From: Escherichia coli
GTDB lineage: Bacteria; Pseudomonadota; Gammaproteobacteria; Enterobacterales; Enterobacteriaceae
NCBI RefSeq assembly: GCF_030384885.1
Contig: NZ_CP128613.1
Strand: one strand, 5' to 3'
Length of the DNA stretch: 64,000 nt
Position numbers and translations under genes: made by a program. This document shows, in pieces, positions 23,417 to 34,125 of the stretch. Numbering within the stretch: position 1 is the first letter of the stretch; each line of letters opens with the position of its first letter. Below the pieces are notes generated by a model. The model was not told where the DNA came from, ran no database searches, and saw only the letters and a list, made by a program, of their open reading frames with translations.

Positions 23417-24973
23417 ATGGAATTCTTAATGGACCCCTCAATTTGGGCGGGGCTACTCACGCTTGTTGTTCTCGAAATTGTGCTGGGTATCGATAACCTG
23501 GTCTTCATCGCCATTCTTGCTGACAAACTGCCGCCAAAACAACGCGATAAAGCGCGTTTGCTGGGGTTATCACTGGCGCTGATTATGCGTCTGGGGCTGC
23601 TGTCGCTGATTTCATGGATGGTCACGCTGACCAAACCGCTATTTACCGTCATGGATTTCTCCTTCTCCGGACGCGACCTGATTATGTTGTTCGGGGGGAT
23701 ATTCTTGCTGTTCAAAGCAACAACCGAACTGCATGAACGGCTGGAAAACCGCGATCATGATTCCGGCCACGGTAAAGGCTACGCCAGTTTCTGGGTGGTC
23801 GTCACACAGATTGTCATCCTTGACGCCGTCTTCTCGTTGGATGCGGTAATTACTGCAGTAGGGATGGTTAACCATCTGCCGGTGATGATGGCGGCGGTAG
23901 TGATTGCGATGGCGGTTATGTTGCTGGCATCCAAACCGCTGACGCGATTCGTTAACCAGCACCCCACGGTGGTGGTGCTCTGTCTGAGCTTCCTGTTAAT
24001 GATTGGTCTGAGTCTGGTGGCAGAAGGTTTCGGTTTCCACATTCCGAAAGGTTACCTGTATGCCGCGATTGGCTTCTCGATCATCATCGAAGTGTTTAAC
24101 CAGATTGCGCGTCGCAACTTTATTCGCCACCAGTCGACTTTGCCGCTGCGAGCGCGTACTGCCGATGCCATCCTGCGTTTGATGGGCGGGAAACGTCAGG
24201 CCAATGTTCAGCACGATGCCGATAACCCGATGCCGATGCCGATCCCGGAAGGTGCATTTGCCGAAGAAGAACGTTACATGATTAACGGCGTACTGACGCT
24301 GGCGTCGCGTTCTCTGCGCGGGATCATGACGCCGCGCGGTGAAATAAGCTGGGTTGACGCTAATCTCGGGGTCGATGAAATCCGCGAGCAACTGCTCTCT
24401 TCACCGCACAGTCTGTTCCCGGTATGTCGCGGTGAACTGGATGAAATCATCGGTATTGTACGTGCTAAAGAACTGCTGGTGGCGCTGGAAGAGGGCGTTG
24501 ATGTGGCGGCGATTGCTTCGGCGTCTCCGGCGATTATCGTCCCGGAAACCCTCGATCCGATCAACCTGTTGGGCGTGCTGCGTCGTGCTCGCGGGAGCTT
24601 TGTTATCGTGACCAACGAGTTTGGTGTGGTACAAGGTCTGGTCACGCCGCTGGATGTGCTGGAAGCCATTGCGGGTGAATTCCCGGACGCTGACGAAACG
24701 CCGGAAATCATTACCGATGGTGACGGCTGGCTGGTAAAAGGCGGTACAGATTTGCATGCCTTGCAGCAGGCGCTTGATGTTGAGCACCTTGCCGATGACG
24801 ATGATATCGCGACGGTCGCGGGCCTCGTGATCTCGGCAAATGGTCACATTCCCCGTGTGGGCGATGTGATTGATGTAGGGCCACTGCATATCACCATCAT
24901 TGAAGCCAATGATTATCGTGTTGATCTGGTTCGCATTGTTAAAGAGCAACCGGCGCACGATGAAGATGAGTAA
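23417..24973 (+). CDS. yoaE: TerC-family membrane protein with CBS pair and CorC/HlyC domain, YoaE
   Basis: 518-aa product [35 protein letters not shown]... with TerC membrane region followed by CBS/CorC-type cytoplasmic domain. Confidence 0.9.
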
Positions 24974-28835: not shown

Positions 28836-30197
28836 TTACTTCTCCAGTTGGCGTAATATCTTATTAACTTTATCAAAAGTTTCCTGATATTCCGCTTCTT
28901 CCTGGCTATCGGCGACAATTCCACCGCCCGCAGAGCAGTATATTTGTCCGTTAATGGCAGTCAGCGTGCGGATAGTAATGCTGGTATCCATGTTGCCGCA
29001 AAAGCTCAAATAGCCAATGCTGCCGCACCAGGCATTGCGTCGCTGCGGTTCCAGTTCGTCGATAATTTCCATAGCCCGTACTTTCGGTGCTCCAGTTATT
29101 GAGCCACCAGGAAAAGCTGCGCGCAGCAGATCGCTGGTGTGTAACTGTTCTGGTAGTTGCGCCGTTATGGTGCTGACCAGATGATGCACGGCAGGGAAGG
29201 GTTCCACCACGAACAGCTCTGGTACTTTTACCGAACCTGCTACGGCAACACGACCGATATCATTACGCATTAAATCGACAATCATCAGATTTTCGGCACG
29301 ATCTTTCGCTGAGTTCGCCAGTTTTTCTGCTTGTTTGCTATCTTCCTGAGGATCGGGCAGGCGTGGTAGCGTGCCTTTAATCGGGCGGGTCTGGATTTCA
29401 CTATTATCACAAAGAATAAACCGCTCTGGCGAAAGGCTTAAAATCGCGCCCTGTTCAAGACGTAAAAAAGCGCTAAATGGCGCGCGGTTGGCCTGATTAA
29501 GCTGAAGGAATGCCTGCCATTCATCGCCAGAATAGGTCGCATGGAAACGCTGGGCGAGATTCACCTGATAGCAATCACCGCTGTGCAGATATTCCTGTAC
29601 CTGGCGAAATTTTTCGCCGTACAGCTCGCGGGTCATATTGGATTGCCAGTCGGAAGTGAGCGTGAAATCTTCCTGCGGCGAGAATTGCTGGCTTTCCAGC
29701 CAGGCCCGACGGGCATTGACATCATTATGACTCAGCAAAGAAACTGTTTGACGCTGGTGGTCGACAATGAGCGCCCAGTCGTAGATACCCACAGCCATAT
29801 CCGGCAGAACGATATCTTGCTGCGCAATTTCTGGCAGTGACTCAAAACGGCGGCCCAGATCGTAGCCAAACAACCCCAGCGCGCCGCCCTGAAATGGCAA
29901 ATCTTCGTTATGCGCTGGGCGAATGTCTGCGCGATCCAGCACCTGCTGGAGCACCTGTAGCGGGTCATCAGTGGTCGTTGTGCGTTTTTCGCTTTCACTA
30001 ACAACGGTTTCTTTACCGAAAGTGGTTAAAGTGCAAATCGGCTCGGCGACCACAATATCAAAGCGGCTATATGGATGATCGGCATAGCCGGAGTGTAAAA
30101 GCATCGCCCACGGCAGGTGACTTAAGCGGGAGAAATAAAATTCAGCGGCGTCCTGACGCCAGGGTAAAGTAATCACAGCGGGAGATAACGTCTTCAT
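28836..30197 (-). CDS. pabB: Aminodeoxychorismate synthase component I PabB
   Basis: 453-aa product MKTLSPAVITLPWRQDAAEFYFSRLSHLPWAMLLHSG... chorismate-binding enzyme fold; stop 3 nt before nudL start. Confidence 0.94.
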   Translation of the reverse strand: MKTLSPAVITLPWRQDAAEFYFSRLSHLPWAMLLHSGYADHPYSRFDIVVAEPICTLTTFGKETVVSESEKRTTTTDDPLQVLQQVLDRADIRPAHNEDLPFQGGALGLFGYDLGRRFESLPEIAQQDIVLPDMAVGIYDWALIVDHQRQTVSLLSHNDVNARRAWLESQQFSPQEDFTLTSDWQSNMTRELYGEKFRQVQEYLHSGDCYQVNLAQRFHATYSGDEWQAFLQLNQANRAPFSAFLRLEQGAILSLSPERFILCDNSEIQTRPIKGTLPRLPDPQEDSKQAEKLANSAKDRAENLMIVDLMRNDIGRVAVAGSVKVPELFVVEPFPAVHHLVSTITAQLPEQLHTSDLLRAAFPGGSITGAPKVRAMEIIDELEPQRRNAWCGSIGYLSFCGNMDTSITIRTLTAINGQIYCSAGGGIVADSQEEAEYQETFDKVNKILRQLEK

Positions 30198-30270
30198 CAG
30201 TCCTGACTCTACTGGCTATGTGCCGGGTAGCATGAAATAATTAGCGCCAACAATTTAGCAGGAGTTAACA

Positions 30271-30450
30271 ATGTTTGCAGGTTTACCTTCACTCACCCAT
30301 GAACAGCAGCAAAAAGCCGTCGAGCGGATCCAGGAACTGATGGCACAAGGGATGAGCAGCGGCCAGGCAATCGCGTTGGTGGCAGAAGAGCTGCGTGCCA
30401 ACCATTCCGGCGAGCGAATCGTGGCGCGTTTTGAGGATGAAGACGAGTAA
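30271..30450 (+). CDS. yoaH: UPF0181 small protein YoaH (59 aa)
   Basis: ATG ORF (below track threshold) giving [59 protein letters not shown]; GGAG RBS upstream; divergent from pabB. Confidence 0.85.
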
Positions 30451-30456
30451 CACAAA

Positions 30457-30909
30457 ATGATCCGTATCGATTTCGTCACGGATGACGCCCTGTATCTTGA
30501 TACGGATAGCCTCATCGGCTGGGATTTTTCCGGCATGAACTTACATCGTGCCATTTTTGACGGTATGTGCCTGGACGGCGCGCGGTTTAATCATGCGCAT
30601 CTGCGTAATATCAGTTTTATCAACGCGTCCCTGATTGGGGCCGACCTCTCGTCCAGCGCACTGATGTGTGCCTGGTTAAACAGCGCCGATCTGACCAATT
30701 GTAATTTTGCTCAGTCACGACCCATTGATGCTGATTTTAGGCATGCACGACTTTGTGGGGCAGATTTTACCGACACCGATTTAAGAGGTGCTAATTTTTC
30801 ATCGACACATCTTCAGAATGTTTGTTTTAACGGGGCGCATTATGACAAACGAACTGTCTGGCCCGCAGAGTTTTATCCAAGGATTAACGGGGCTGTGTTG
30901 GTTGATTGA
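30457..30909 (+). CDS. Pentapeptide-repeat protein (Qnr/MfpA/McbG-like beta-helix), identity not recognised at this locus
   Basis: 150-aa ORF; residues ~22-131 are ~22 tandem 5-residue units (WDFSG MNLHR AIFDG MCLDG ARFNH AHLRN ISFIN ASLIG ADLSS SALMC AWLNS ADLTN CNFAQ ...) with F/L at the central position; ATG lies 6 nt after the yoaH stop and in the same frame; no strong SD. Confidence 0.65.
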   Translation: MIRIDFVTDDALYLDTDSLIGWDFSGMNLHRAIFDGMCLDGARFNHAHLRNISFINASLIGADLSSSALMCAWLNSADLTNCNFAQSRPIDADFRHARLCGADFTDTDLRGANFSSTHLQNVCFNGAHYDKRTVWPAEFYPRINGAVLVD

Positions 30910-30998
30910 ATTTGGCGGGGTTTATGATGGCAAGAAAAAGACGCTTTTATGTGGTCAACAAAAGCGCCCTGGTCAATTTTTGCTGATAGAGAATTAAC

Positions 30999-31298
30999 TC
31001 AAACCAGTGCTTTGAGTTCTTCCTGCATGTACGACGAAAAGTATTCTGGGTTTTTAATCACAATACGTTCACCAGACTCCATTTTTTTTGCCCATCCCAC
31101 CATTTTTTCCGTGAATCCAGGATTCCAGCCTTCCTGATCGGCTCGCGCAGTAATATCGGCGGAACTGGCGGGTACACCCAGGTCATGCAAATATTTAAAT
31201 ATTCCCTTCGCCGTACTTTCATTCATAGAACTTGGTGTTGATGCTGATACATCCATGGCACCAATAAAATCCAGAGCTTTATCTATTACTGCAGGCAT
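30999..31298 (-). CDS. yoaC: DUF1889 protein YoaC
   Basis: 99-aa product MPAVIDKALDFIGAMDVSASTPSSMNESTAKGIFKYLHDLG... from internal Met of ORF 30999..31322. Confidence 0.8.
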   Translation of the reverse strand: MPAVIDKALDFIGAMDVSASTPSSMNESTAKGIFKYLHDLGVPASSADITARADQEGWNPGFTEKMVGWAKKMESGERIVIKNPEYFSSYMQEELKALV

Positions 31299-31738
31299 AT
31301 TCTTTTCCTTAAAATTAACCATGTGAACAATAAGGCTATATATGACCTTAAATTGCGTCCAATATCAAAGGGATTATAACGATATCTCATTAGTTAACCT
31401 ATTGACATTCAGGTGTTTTAAAGGTAGCAGGTCATAGTCTGTTATGTAGTGATGTACCGCAAATTAACTGTAAGTAGAAACGCTTCAGCCCAGGTTTTCA
31501 AGCAAGAAAGATAGCAAGAAGAAAACCAAAGTAGGCTAATCAGGGAGTTAGCATAATAATTTGATTTTGCTGATTAATATCAATTGTGTATAAATAACAA
31601 CGAATCGATAAAAATGAAGAATAAATGACCTGAAGGGGTATTACACATCTAAAACACTGACCGTTTTATTCAAAGTCGGCCAGTGTTTTCGATAAATTAT
31701 TGTGCGACTTTTGCCGTGACAGAATTCTTTTTCTGAAA

Positions 31739-32083
31739 TTAAACCGCCGCGATAATCTTAATTTCAACCTTGTACTTCGGGTTCATCAAACCCGCTTGTA
31801 CCGTGCAGCGCACCGGCGCATGACCCGCGACAACCCAGGCATCCCACGCTTTATTCATCGCCGCGAAGTCGTTTTTATCAGCCAGGAAAATGGTGGCATC
31901 CAGAATGCTCGATTTATTGCTGCCCTGTTTTTCCAGCACGGCGTCAATCTGCGCCAGCGTGTTGGCGGTTTGCTCAAAGGCATTGGCGTCGAGGTTTTCC
32001 GGTACACCAGTGTAGTAGAGCGTGTTGTTGTGGATTACTACATCAGACCAGCGGGCTTCAGCATCGATACGAACGATAGTCAT
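31739..32083 (-). CDS. yoaB: RidA/YjgF-family protein YoaB
   Basis: 114-aa product MTIVRIDAEARWSDVVIHNNTLYYTGVPENLDANAFEQ...; start at internal Met of ORF 31739..32131. Confidence 0.85.
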   Translation of the reverse strand: MTIVRIDAEARWSDVVIHNNTLYYTGVPENLDANAFEQTANTLAQIDAVLEKQGSNKSSILDATIFLADKNDFAAMNKAWDAWVVAGHAPVRCTVQAGLMNPKYKVEIKIIAAV

Positions 32084-32214
32084 CATTTTGTCCTCATTAT
32101 CCTTCCATTTTCGTGCTGCAAAGACTGCCACAATGTGAGGTCGCCGTCACCACTTCAACTGGCGAAAGCGCCCTCATCCTGACATAATCCCTGTTCAAAT
32201 CAACAGGGGGTAGT

Positions 32215-34125
32215 GTGACGGACGATTTTGCACCAGACGGTCAGCTGGCGAAAGCGATACCAGGCTTTAAGCCGCGAGAACCACAGCGTCAGATGGCGGT
32301 AGCCGTCACCCAGGCAATAGAAACAAGCCAGCCGCTGGTGGTGGAGGCCGGAACCGGTACGGGCAAAACCTACGCTTACCTGGCCCCTGCGCTGCGGGCG
32401 AAAAAGAAAGTCATTATCTCGACCGGCTCAAAAGCGTTGCAGGATCAGCTCTACAGCCGCGATTTGCCAACGGTCTCAAAGGCGTTGAAATACACGGGCA
32501 ACGTGGCGTTGCTGAAAGGGCGCTCAAACTATCTCTGCCTCGAACGACTGGAACAGCAGGCGCTGGCGGGCGGCGATTTGCCGGTACAAATCTTAAGCGA
32601 TGTGATCCTGCTGCGCTCCTGGTCTAATCAAACAGTCGATGGTGATATCAGCACCTGCGTCAGCGTGGCGGAAGATTCACAGGCGTGGCCGCTGGTCACC
32701 AGCACCAACGACAACTGCCTTGGCAGCGACTGCCCGATGTATAAAGATTGCTTTGTGGTCAAAGCACGCAAAAAAGCGATGGACGCCGATGTGGTGGTGG
32801 TAAACCATCATCTCTTTCTGGCGGATATGGTGGTGAAAGAGAGTGGATTTGGCGAACTGATCCCGGAAGCTGACGTGATGATCTTCGACGAAGCCCACCA
32901 ACTGCCTGACATTGCCAGCCAGTATTTTGGTCAGTCACTCTCCAGTCGACAACTGCTCGACCTGGCAAAAGACATCACCATCGCCTACCGCACCGAATTA
33001 AAAGACACCCAGCAGTTACAAAAGTGCGCCGACCGCCTTGCCCAGAGCGCGCAGGATTTTCGCCTGCAATTAGGTGAGCCAGGTTATCGTGGCAACCTGC
33101 GCGAACTGTTAGCTAATCCGCAAATTCAGCGAGCATTTTTACTGCTCGATGACACCCTGGAACTTTGTTATGACGTGGCGAAACTGTCGCTGGGGCGTTC
33201 CGCCTTGCTGGATGCGGCATTTGAGCGCGCCACGTTGTATCGTACGCGGCTGAAACGGCTAAAAGAGATCAATCAGCCGGGCTACAGCTACTGGTATGAA
33301 TGCACTTCGCGCCATTTTACTCTGGCGCTCACGCCGCTTAGCGTGGCGGATAAATTCAAAGAATTAATGGCGCAAAAACCAGGTAGCTGGATCTTCACCT
33401 CAGCAACGCTGTCGGTGAACGACGATCTGCATCATTTCACCTCGCGGCTCGGGATAGAACACGCGGAGTCGTTGCTATTGCCAAGCCCCTTTGATTACAG
33501 CCGCCAGGCATTACTCTGTGTGCCGCGCAACCTGCCGCAAACCAATCAACCGGGTTCCGCTCGGCAGCTGGCGGCAATGCTGCGACCGATCATCGAAGCC
33601 AATAATGGTCGTTGTTTCATGCTTTGTACCTCGCACGCCATGATGCGCGATCTGGCCGAGCAGTTCCGCGCTACCATGACGCTTCCCGTGTTGTTGCAGG
33701 GGGAAACCAGCAAAGGCCAACTGCTACAGCAGTTTGTCAGTGCCGGTAATGCGCTGCTTGTGGCGACCAGCAGTTTCTGGGAGGGGGTGGACGTGCGTGG
33801 CGATACATTGTCACTGGTGATTATCGACAAGTTGCCGTTTACCTCCCCGGATGACCCGTTGTTAAAAGCGCGCATGGAAGATTGCCGTTTGCGCGGTGGT
33901 GACCCGTTCGATGAAGTACAACTGCCGGATGCGGTCATTACTCTCAAGCAGGGAGTAGGGCGACTGATTCGCGACGCCGACGATCGAGGGGTTTTGGTGA
34001 TTTGCGACAATCGGCTGGTGATGCGCCCTTACGGCGCGACGTTTCTCGCCAGTCTGCCGCCAGCGCCGCGCACCCGTGACATTGCCCGTGCGGTTCGTTT
34101 CCTTGCGATACCATCCTCCAGGTAA
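32215..34125 (+). CDS. yoaA: DinG-family ATP-dependent DNA helicase YoaA
   Basis: 636-aa product with Walker A (AGTGTGKT), DEAH box (FDEAHQL) and Fe-S Cys cluster; GTG start. Confidence 0.92.
   Translation: MTDDFAPDGQLAKAIPGFKPREPQRQMAVAVTQAIETSQPLVVEAGTGTGKTYAYLAPALRAKKKVIISTGSKALQDQLYSRDLPTVSKALKYTGNVALLKGRSNYLCLERLEQQALAGGDLPVQILSDVILLRSWSNQTVDGDISTCVSVAEDSQAWPLVTSTNDNCLGSDCPMYKDCFVVKARKKAMDADVVVVNHHLFLADMVVKESGFGELIPEADVMIFDEAHQLPDIASQYFGQSLSSRQLLDLAKDITIAYRTELKDTQQLQKCADRLAQSAQDFRLQLGEPGYRGNLRELLANPQIQRAFLLLDDTLELCYDVAKLSLGRSALLDAAFERATLYRTRLKRLKEINQPGYSYWYECTSRHFTLALTPLSVADKFKELMAQKPGSWIFTSATLSVNDDLHHFTSRLGIEHAESLLLPSPFDYSRQALLCVPRNLPQTNQPGSARQLAAMLRPIIEANNGRCFMLCTSHAMMRDLAEQFRATMTLPVLLQGETSKGQLLQQFVSAGNALLVATSSFWEGVDVRGDTLSLVIIDKLPFTSPDDPLLKARMEDCRLRGGDPFDEVQLPDAVITLKQGVGRLIRDADDRGVLVICDNRLVMRPYGATFLASLPPAPRTRDIARAVRFLAIPSSR

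Follow-up and report, generated by a model that had tools for sequence, protein, structure and literature searches.

The window analysed here is a stretch of 64,000 nucleotides of the core chromosome of Escherichia coli, reaching from yobA to yeaC. Between yoaH and yoaC it carries a pentapeptide-repeat gene of 150 codons (gene order pabB, yoaH, the repeat gene, yoaC, yoaB), and this gene, its relatives behind Rhs and CdiA toxins and its probable role in immunity against such toxins are the subject of this report. The locus is 100% identical to that of E. coli 2013C-4282 (NZ_CP027579.1), whose annotation (631608-695607) agrees for every gene and labels the open reading frame (ORF) just as 'pentapeptide repeat-containing protein' (WP_000618093.1). 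The first-pass annotation of the window had described an ATG 6 nt past the yoaH stop codon and in its frame, an ORF of 453 nt, a distance of 89 nt from the end of this ORF to the stop of the convergent yoaC, and about 22 repeat units; every one of these details was confirmed. The interval is organized as follows.

30271..30450, plus strand: yoaH, a core gene of 59 amino acids (aa), with its TAA at 30448-30450 (RefSeq annotation)
30451..30456, plus strand: spacer CACAAA, 6 nt from the yoaH TAA to the ATG of the repeat gene (read from the sequence)
30457..30909, plus strand: pentapeptide-repeat ORF, 453 nt, 150 aa, with its ATG at 30457 in the yoaH frame
30938..30970, minus strand: 13-bp terminator-like hairpin between the repeat gene and yoaC (terminator scan)

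The ORF lies in the reading frame of yoaH because the spacer measures 6 nt. No annotated or credible gene overlaps it, and the mechanical ORF list holds short ORFs in its other frames. The convergent yoaC occupies 30999..31298, and the hairpin at 30938-30970 is kept in K-12 too, according to the alignment. The promoter scan of the 6-nt gap revealed no promoter-like site, the start of the repeat gene has no canonical Shine-Dalgarno (SD) sequence at 5-9 nt and none that is good at the optimal distance, and an Rfam scan of 29500-32500 returned no family. The identical spacing to yoaH was found in Escherichia sp. E4742, Escherichia sp. E1V33 and E. whittamii, which makes 4 of 4 Escherichia lineages when the window is included. 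Two ideas had been put forward for this junction. Translational coupling to yoaH is plausible in view of the spacing shared by all four lineages and the lack of a good SD at the optimal distance. A former fusion with yoaH is unsupported: YoaH (98.3% identical between the window and K-12) matches the NCBIfam YoaH family with 114 bits (cut-off 72) over residues 1-59 of the 60-position model, thus fitting it end to end, and the alignments of the repeat protein with homologues unrelated to yoaH begin at its own Met1.

The AlphaFold2 (AF2) model of the repeat protein, for which seven family sequences were used as input, has a predicted local distance difference test score (pLDDT) of 90.3 and a predicted template modelling score (pTM) of 0.84. 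By this model, the protein is confidently predicted to be a right-handed quadrilateral beta-helix, as the first-pass annotation had expected from the repeats. All 57 significant matches listed by Foldseek against the PDB are pentapeptide-repeat structures; the top ones are generic repeat proteins (synthetic Beta1, Np275/276, Rfr23), and Qnr, MfpA and AlbG are structurally no closer to the repeat protein than synthetic solenoids are. The protein is acidic (net charge -7, isoelectric point 5.1) and is composed of the following elements.

30457..30519, plus strand: N-terminal cap, residues 1-21, MIRIDFVTDDALYLDTDSLIG, with the family signature MI.I...L.L..[DS]L.G (alignments)
30520..30849, plus strand: 22 pentapeptide units without a break, residues 22-131, about 5.5 coils of beta-helix (register analysis)
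30544..30549, plus strand: codons of His30-Arg31, facing outward on face 2 of coil 1 (conservation on the unit/face register)
30604-30606 and 30664-30666, plus strand: codons of Arg50 and Met70, which together with His30-Arg31 form the proposed toxin-contact stripe
30850..30906, plus strand: C-terminal cap, residues 132-150, RTVWPAEFYPRINGAVLVD (alignments)

The centres of the units are F, L or Y in one register throughout residues 22-131, with Pro89 as the sole exception, and the units are modelled with pLDDT of 91-97. The N-terminal cap forms two short strands in the model (pLDDT 54-71). The C-terminal cap, which together with the preceding unit makes up the family motif A.[YF][DN]..T.WP..F.P, has a short helix at 141-144. 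Conservation mapping placed four exposed and conserved residues, His30, Arg31, Arg50 and Met70, on one face of coils 1-3; His30 is kept in 11/11 and Arg31 in 10/11 diverse family members, and the whole stripe in 10-11 of 11. Pfam recognizes the tandem A(D/N)LXX-type units of the protein by PF00805 (4.4e-10) and PF13599 (4.9e-7). Against the specific NCBIfam models, all scores stayed far under the curated cut-offs, as listed below.

Alr5209 (NF052603): 64.6 bits, below the cut-off of 125
HetL: 54.7 bits, cut-off 260
PipB: 47.5 bits, cut-off 274
Qnr (NF033086): 39.6 bits, below the cut-off of 240
Qnr subfamilies: 25-34 bits, below cut-offs of 425-500
MfpA (NF000349): 26.4 bits, below the cut-off of 360

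A type III secretion system effector was also considered and rejected, as PipB, PipB2 and SopA are far under their cut-offs and match through the repeats alone.

Outside Escherichia, the repeat protein belongs to a family of 150-162 residues that shares both of its caps. P0004, P0005 and P0208, the nearest relatives outside Escherichia, show 37-43% identity and are collinear with it from Met1 to the C-terminus, caps included. The proteins from Salmonella, P. viridiflava, Cytobacillus and the metagenomic locus L016 align end to end with 32-38% identity. The closest toxin-linked member is a Hafnia protein (46% identity, about 68% over residues 1-60, E 2e-50). In the family the N-terminal signature is followed by LHR (LH[RT]A) and FDG, the C-terminal motif is the one given above, and the window protein conforms to all of these. 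Toxin-linked members are 30-43% identical across lineages (higher within L005/L006/L012 and between Cytobacillus and Paenibacillus), and since the 32-46% identity of the Escherichia protein matches this mutual range, it falls inside the family. All members are acidic (net -3 to -10), and the toxin-linked ones have 159-162 aa and 24 units.

The size of the family is harder to read from the searches. The family-profile search against 1.84 billion representatives was swamped by giant repeat proteins, and P0208 was its sole useful match. Single-sequence search made the family seem tiny, in part because of a gap in the database: the 15-billion-protein collection lacks the exact full-length proteins of the window, E1V33, Hafnia and Salmonella, though they are in RefSeq, so estimates of family size from it are too low. 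A profile of the N-terminal cap yielded short fragments only, which tell little about distribution, but it exposed truncated Escherichia alleles. In a soil-metagenome Rhs locus (L047:1849-2332, L048:4932-5415), a frameshift has broken a family member into ORFs of 94 aa and 83 aa, making it another decaying orphan copy.

The relatives of the repeat gene stand in the immunity position of polymorphic toxins. In 8/9 toxin loci examined, a repeat gene is the next gene after the same toxin domain, at distances of -4, -4, +11, -1, -4, -1, -4 and +8 nt over the eight pairs. These are as follows.

L006: a CdiA-like ORF with the VENN-like motif ETENN; the repeat gene overlaps its stop codon (ATGA)
L017: of the same CdiA type as L006 (metagenome scan)
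L016: Rhs type, GC 39%; a YD/Rhs protein ending 220 residues past DPDGMW with the toxin domain; repeat gene at +11 nt (metagenome scan)
L060: a Salmonella Rhs orphan followed by the repeat gene
L064: P. viridiflava, toxin and repeat gene behind a CdiA of 5,395 aa
L066: a Cytobacillus YD-repeat locus with the repeat gene
L069: a Hafnia PAAR-Rhs locus with the repeat gene
L071: Paenibacillus, with the repeat gene

The last five came from six toxins that were chosen, blind to their neighbours, from the matches of the toxin-domain search; in 5/6 of these loci the next gene encodes a repeat-family member of 159-162 aa. The sixth pick is a divergent stand-alone variant lacking the terminal DWGN, and has no repeat gene as neighbour. 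This variant (L072/L073:3001-3291) is a ParB/sulfiredoxin (Srx)-like domain of 96 aa without an N-terminal delivery region; it adjoins a sensor kinase and an insertion sequence (IS) fragment with no repeat gene nearby, and may not be a toxin. In Pseudomonas viridiflava (L064/L065 1-4794), the order is a CdiA of 5,395 aa with an EndoU tip, its immunity candidate of 84 aa, the orphan ParB/Srx-like toxin plus repeat module and, beyond it, a TreTu_C fragment. A frameshift close to the C-terminus shortens the repeat protein of L063 to 151 aa.

The toxin domain directly follows either the DPxG[LM] motif of Rhs proteins or the VENN-like ETENN motif, where toxins canonically sit. The recurrence of the same pair of toxin and downstream gene across scaffolds and unrelated genomes is the classical signature of cognate toxin and immunity (Zhang et al. 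2012; PMC3482391). Because the present pair travels on different scaffolds in unrelated genomes, the repeat gene is probably the cognate immunity partner. Family copies also occur as orphans, in arrays whose other members are MafI, CdiI_N, Colicin_immun and Imm40 genes and orphan C-terminal fragments of Rhs or Fil_haemagg: L005 and L012 lie among MafI, MafI2, CdiI_N, DUF7660, Colicin_immun and orphan Fil_haemagg fragments, and in L016 an orphan Rhs C-terminal fragment follows the repeat gene. No toxin remnants were detected upstream of the orphan copies L005 and L012 or around yoaH.

The toxin domain itself is C-terminal, comprises about 100 residues and has the ParB/sulfiredoxin-like fold; its invariant positions include a DGNHR motif and the terminal DWGN. 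The search with this domain returned about 100 proteins, and its carriers are Rhs, CdiA and Gram-positive YD-repeat proteins. Matches include Salmonella enterica proteins annotated as 'RHS repeat-associated core domain', and the other genera are Providencia, Hafnia, Budvicia, Pseudomonas, Paenibacillus, Cytobacillus, Brevibacillus, Clostridium, Sorangium and Pedobacter. No model for the domain was found in Pfam, NCBIfam, PADLOC or PHROGs (none even at E <= 10 in Pfam and NCBIfam), and the PDB sequences gave no match. We found no literature on a pair of pentapeptide-repeat protein and DGNHR toxin, nor on any tested family member. For a related fold, ToxB, a ParB-CTPase-fold C-terminal domain of CdiA found with PF02195, was reported to be a potent ATPase toxin, and its immunity protein iToxB forms a dimer that occludes the ToxB active site and supplies Arg and His residues that touch the nucleotide (Kaljevic et al., bioRxiv 10.64898/2026.05.05.722872); that preprint does not mention pentapeptide repeats.

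Within E. coli, the gene is rare. Megablast and sensitive blastn detected the ORF in 3/5,426 complete genomes, all of them human stool isolates (USA, Viet Nam, Thailand) with the ORF between yoaH and yoaC, and the flanking sequence was found in 5,424 of the 5,426. The repeat gene is absent from K-12 at yoaH-yoaC, so that of the two options offered by the first-pass annotation, a strain-variable accessory gene or an under-annotated core gene, the former applies. In K-12 and O157:H7 the gap between yoaH and yoaC is 119 nt and starts with TAACAC-ACTA-ATCCGTATCGATTTCGT, in which 17 bases are identical to codons 2-7 of the ORF and the ATG is destroyed. Because this 17-nt relic of the 5' end of the ORF sits at the syntenic site, mainstream E. 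coli must have lost the gene through a deletion of about 430 bp. An insertion into the three E. coli as the source of the polymorphism was ruled out, as K-12 and O157 retain these 17 bases. In K-12 (L002:1788-1880, syntenic to 30437-30480), an out-of-frame ATG within the 3' end of yoaH reads MKTSNTLIRIDFVIEADDHLIV over the scar.

Intact orthologues with 86-92% amino-acid identity occupy the same locus in Escherichia sp. E4742, E1V33 and E. whittamii. A pattern scan with one genome per species found no further Escherichia species with the ORF, which is a soft negative. Between the four lineages (dS 0.1-0.3), the repeat gene shows neither stop nor frameshift and evolves with dN/dS of 0.12-0.34, under purifying selection; by this measure the constraint on it is real, though relaxed. 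At least four types of truncated alleles were also found in Escherichia (P0373, 50 aa; P0380, 57 aa; P0003, 108 aa; P0384, 60 aa), and because they differ from each other, the gene has been lost repeatedly. P0384 starts with seven residues that stem from the 3' end of yoaH, translated out of frame across a junction of the K-12 type. It arises from the frame that crosses the K-12 scar, is annotated as 'hypothetical protein' in another E. coli, and links about 46 codons from the N-terminal end of the repeat protein to its C-terminal YDKRT region. In E. coli, the gene therefore decayed in steps.

The origin of the copy in the window was examined by per-gene identities and a 50-nt sliding comparison, which delimited one further feature.

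30451..31750: mosaic patch of about 1.3 kb covering the repeat gene, yoaC and the yoaC-yoaB spacer

This patch is 92-100% identical to cryptic-clade Escherichia and just 46-94% to K-12, whereas its flanks are 96-100% K-12-like (pabB, yoaH, yoaB and yoaA are 97-98% identical to K-12). Its re-import via homologous recombination would be the most economical reading of this pattern. The yoaC of the window is 96-97% identical to that of three cryptic-clade Escherichia and 88.7% to that of K-12 (dS 0.54), and the yoaC-yoaB spacer (440 nt) is about 72% identical to K-12. Among the cryptic clades, yoaC is far closer (dS 0.03-0.26) than pabB (dS 0.19-0.29), and because of this lower dS the yoaC segment (30999-31750) may itself have been exchanged between lineages. 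Elsewhere in the window, yoaE (a CNNM family cation transport protein, 23418-24973) is a frameshifted pseudogene in RefSeq.

Taken together with the gene order in other genomes, we consider it probable that the ORF still works as an orphan immunity gene, directed at a polymorphic toxin of the ParB/sulfiredoxin fold, and it would protect the cell by binding that toxin. In an Escherichia ancestor, the immunity gene alone would have become fixed 6 nt behind yoaH. YoaH is outside the toxin-immunity family, and its gene probably supplies transcription and terminating ribosomes for the downstream repeat gene: transcription probably starts at the yoaH promoter, because the 6-nt gap has no promoter-like site and the terminator-like hairpin lies downstream, and translation probably proceeds by termination-reinitiation from yoaH, which would mimic the stop-start overlap behind the toxin elsewhere. 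When a neighbouring cell injects the toxin, the repeat protein would most likely bind it directly and block its nucleotide-binding active site. By analogy with iToxB, the stripe of His30, Arg31, Arg50 and Met70, which lies on a single face of coils 1-3, is proposed as the contact, plugging the nucleotide pocket; all stripe residues are retained. The attackers would be other species, because the Salmonella-type module was found at DNA level in 0 complete E. coli genomes. The benefit would arise only when such attackers are met, so that the gene would decay easily: mainstream E. coli deleted it, other lineages truncated it, and three complete E. coli genomes carry it on a cryptic-clade-like patch of 1.3 kb.

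A wider reading, to which we give slightly less than an even chance, is that the short pentapeptide-repeat family as a whole is the dedicated immunity of this uncatalogued ParB/sulfiredoxin-fold toxin, carried by Rhs, CdiA and YD proteins of Proteobacteria, Firmicutes and the metagenomic lineage of 39% GC, that the His/Arg stripe blocks the nucleotide pocket, and that the Escherichia copy is a yoaH-driven 'vaccination' gene, fixed in the chromosome, which cross-protects against such toxins of gut neighbours (e.g. Hafnia, Salmonella or Providencia).

Several observations weigh against an immunity function in Escherichia. No toxin domain exists in the 64-kb window and no toxin gene accompanies the ORF, which stands alone between core genes and not in a cdi or rhs array, an unusual setting for orphan immunity genes; the absence of the Salmonella-type module from complete E. 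coli genomes points the same way. The Escherichia proteins (150 aa) lack two units, or 10 residues, that are found in every toxin-linked member, a loss that would turn the C-terminal portion through half a coil and might alter or abolish binding. The identities of toxins and immunity proteins co-vary with r of 0.82 when one near-identical pair is included and 0.37 without it, and are thus not robustly correlated. The dN/dS of the repeat gene exceeds that of its neighbours (0.00-0.18 for yoaH, yoaC and pabB), and for the closest pair it is 0.74, a value based on 18 substitutions only. The truncated alleles in several lineages also suggest that selection is weak or intermittent.

The main rival explanation is that the gene is a functionless relic of an ancient toxin-immunity insertion which happens to be open still in a few lineages. 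The gene is deleted in 5,423/5,426 complete E. coli, at least four truncated alleles exist, the protein has the 10-residue deletion relative to toxin-linked members, and the gene has neither its own promoter nor a good SD. A relic would hardly be expected to keep dN/dS at 0.12-0.34 in four lineages without stop or frameshift, to retain the family-invariant residues, to give a confident and regular beta-helix model and to conserve the 6-nt junction with yoaH, and we regard this explanation as rather unlikely. Immunity could also be achieved by protection of the target, if the family acted as a DNA mimic shielding what the toxin attacks (e.g. a DNA-bound enzyme or DNA). The gene context speaks for this as much as for direct binding of the toxin, all family members are acidic, and the prevailing view of McbG and AlbG is that they act on gyrase, the target. 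Immunity proteins, however, diverge faster between lineages (30-43% identity) than toxins (42-67%), a usual trait of proteins that bind a specific toxin, and the characterised ParB-fold toxin ToxB does not bind DNA and is inhibited by direct occlusion. Conservation on the exposed surface falls on His, Arg, Arg and Met and not on acidic residues; this basic or hydrophobic character makes simple DNA mimicry less attractive though the proteins are acidic overall, and target protection is, in our estimate, unlikely.

Still less probable is the analogy drawn by the first-pass annotation, in which the protein would be a DNA mimic like Qnr, MfpA or McbG (AlbG was also named) that shields gyrase or topoisomerase IV from such poisons as quinolones or microcin B17. 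These proteins and the window protein share one fold, MfpA, QnrB1, AlbG and EfsQnr are among the Foldseek matches, the protein is acidic, and weak NCBIfam matches to Qnr families reach E 5e-10. The scores, however, fail the cut-offs by a wide distance (Qnr 39.6 vs 240, QnrB 30.7 vs 460, MfpA 26.4 vs 360 bits). Qnr proteins have about 210-220 residues and a repeat broken by loops A and B; the window protein has 150 aa, compared with about 180-220 aa in the solved MfpA, AlbG and Qnr chains, and shows no interruption where Qnr has its loops. Its best structural matches are generic, and its full-length homologues are found in toxin-immunity gene pairs, in the immunity position behind Rhs and CdiA toxins, so the analogy was abandoned as very improbable. 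A domesticated partner of YoaH with a housekeeping role would explain why the 6-nt junction and co-orientation are strict in every gene-bearing Escherichia lineage, but YoaH is intact and strongly constrained (dN/dS 0.00-0.13) with or without the repeat gene, nearly all E. coli do without the latter, and no family member outside Escherichia was found beside yoaH; we find such a role hardly credible.

As an orphan immunity gene, the repeat gene can be compared with several known systems. Orphan CdiI/RhsI genes (PMC3482391) are likewise small, toxin-less, strain-variable and easily lost, are homologous to immunity genes of CdiA or Rhs loci and have relatives in poly-immunity arrays. The window gene differs from them in having no array behind cdi or rhs: it is a solitary gene 6 nt downstream of a core gene, and its chromosomal position is fixed across several Escherichia species. 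In the sections of Zhang et al. (2012; PMC3482391) considered here, Tox-ParB is paired with Imm20, Imm27 and Imm-SuFu, and the immunities given for Tox-ParB/Tox-ParBL1 are Imm20, Imm27, Imm-SuFu, Imm-SUKH and Imm44; no immunity family there has the pentapeptide-repeat fold, and the word 'pentapeptide' has 0 occurrences in them. ToxB resembles the partner toxin in its ParB/Srx-type fold, a conserved Arg in a G..HR/GxxR-type motif, its position at the C-terminus of CdiA and named hits mainly in Enterobacterales, and the proposed occlusion of the active site is modelled on the iToxB structure. Compared by description only, the two differ in that the present toxin domain is not recognised by PF02195 and is also carried by Rhs and YD-repeat proteins.

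A pentapeptide-repeat antitoxin, DYE20_11255/Tsi6a, was predicted for the Rhs C-terminal toxin Tse6 (Taillefer et al., bioRxiv 10.64898/2026.07.13.738213). Like the present family, it is a protein annotated with pentapeptide repeats in the immunity position of an Rhs or type VII secretion system toxin, by prediction only; Tse6 differs, on description only, in that it is a rare domain of unknown function which is compared with a toxin annotated as an ADP-ribosyltransferase, with no link to ParB/Srx. McbG, AlbG, Qnr and MfpA share the acidic quadrilateral beta-helix, and McbG and AlbG also serve self-protection against an antibacterial agent. Their agents, however, are small molecules or peptides that poison gyrase, and they are longer dimers, with loops in Qnr; the window protein is below the cut-offs of these families and its relatives are paired with a protein toxin. 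The Alr5209 family, Rfr23 and Np275/276, the best NCBIfam and structural matches, are alike in size and in their uninterrupted repeats, but the window protein stays under the Alr5209 cut-off.

Polymorphic-toxin immunity and orphan immunity genes are thus known kinds; what appears new is the pairing of the pentapeptide-repeat fold with an uncatalogued toxin domain, and an orphan copy fixed behind a core gene. More than 100,000 representative proteins matched the repeat-family profile. To our knowledge, tens of thousands of pentapeptide-repeat proteins are known, and a function has been demonstrated for a handful, almost all of it gyrase protection. If true, immunity against a protein toxin would be a second, well-defined and testable role for the pentapeptide-repeat fold, and would add a new toxin-immunity pair, beside the ParB-fold toxin ToxB, to the field of Rhs, contact-dependent inhibition (CDI) and type VI secretion system (T6SS) toxins. 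For E. coli, the yoaH-yoaC spacer of K-12 is the scar of a lost gene with a putative immunity role, which rare strains hold on a short cryptic-clade-like patch.

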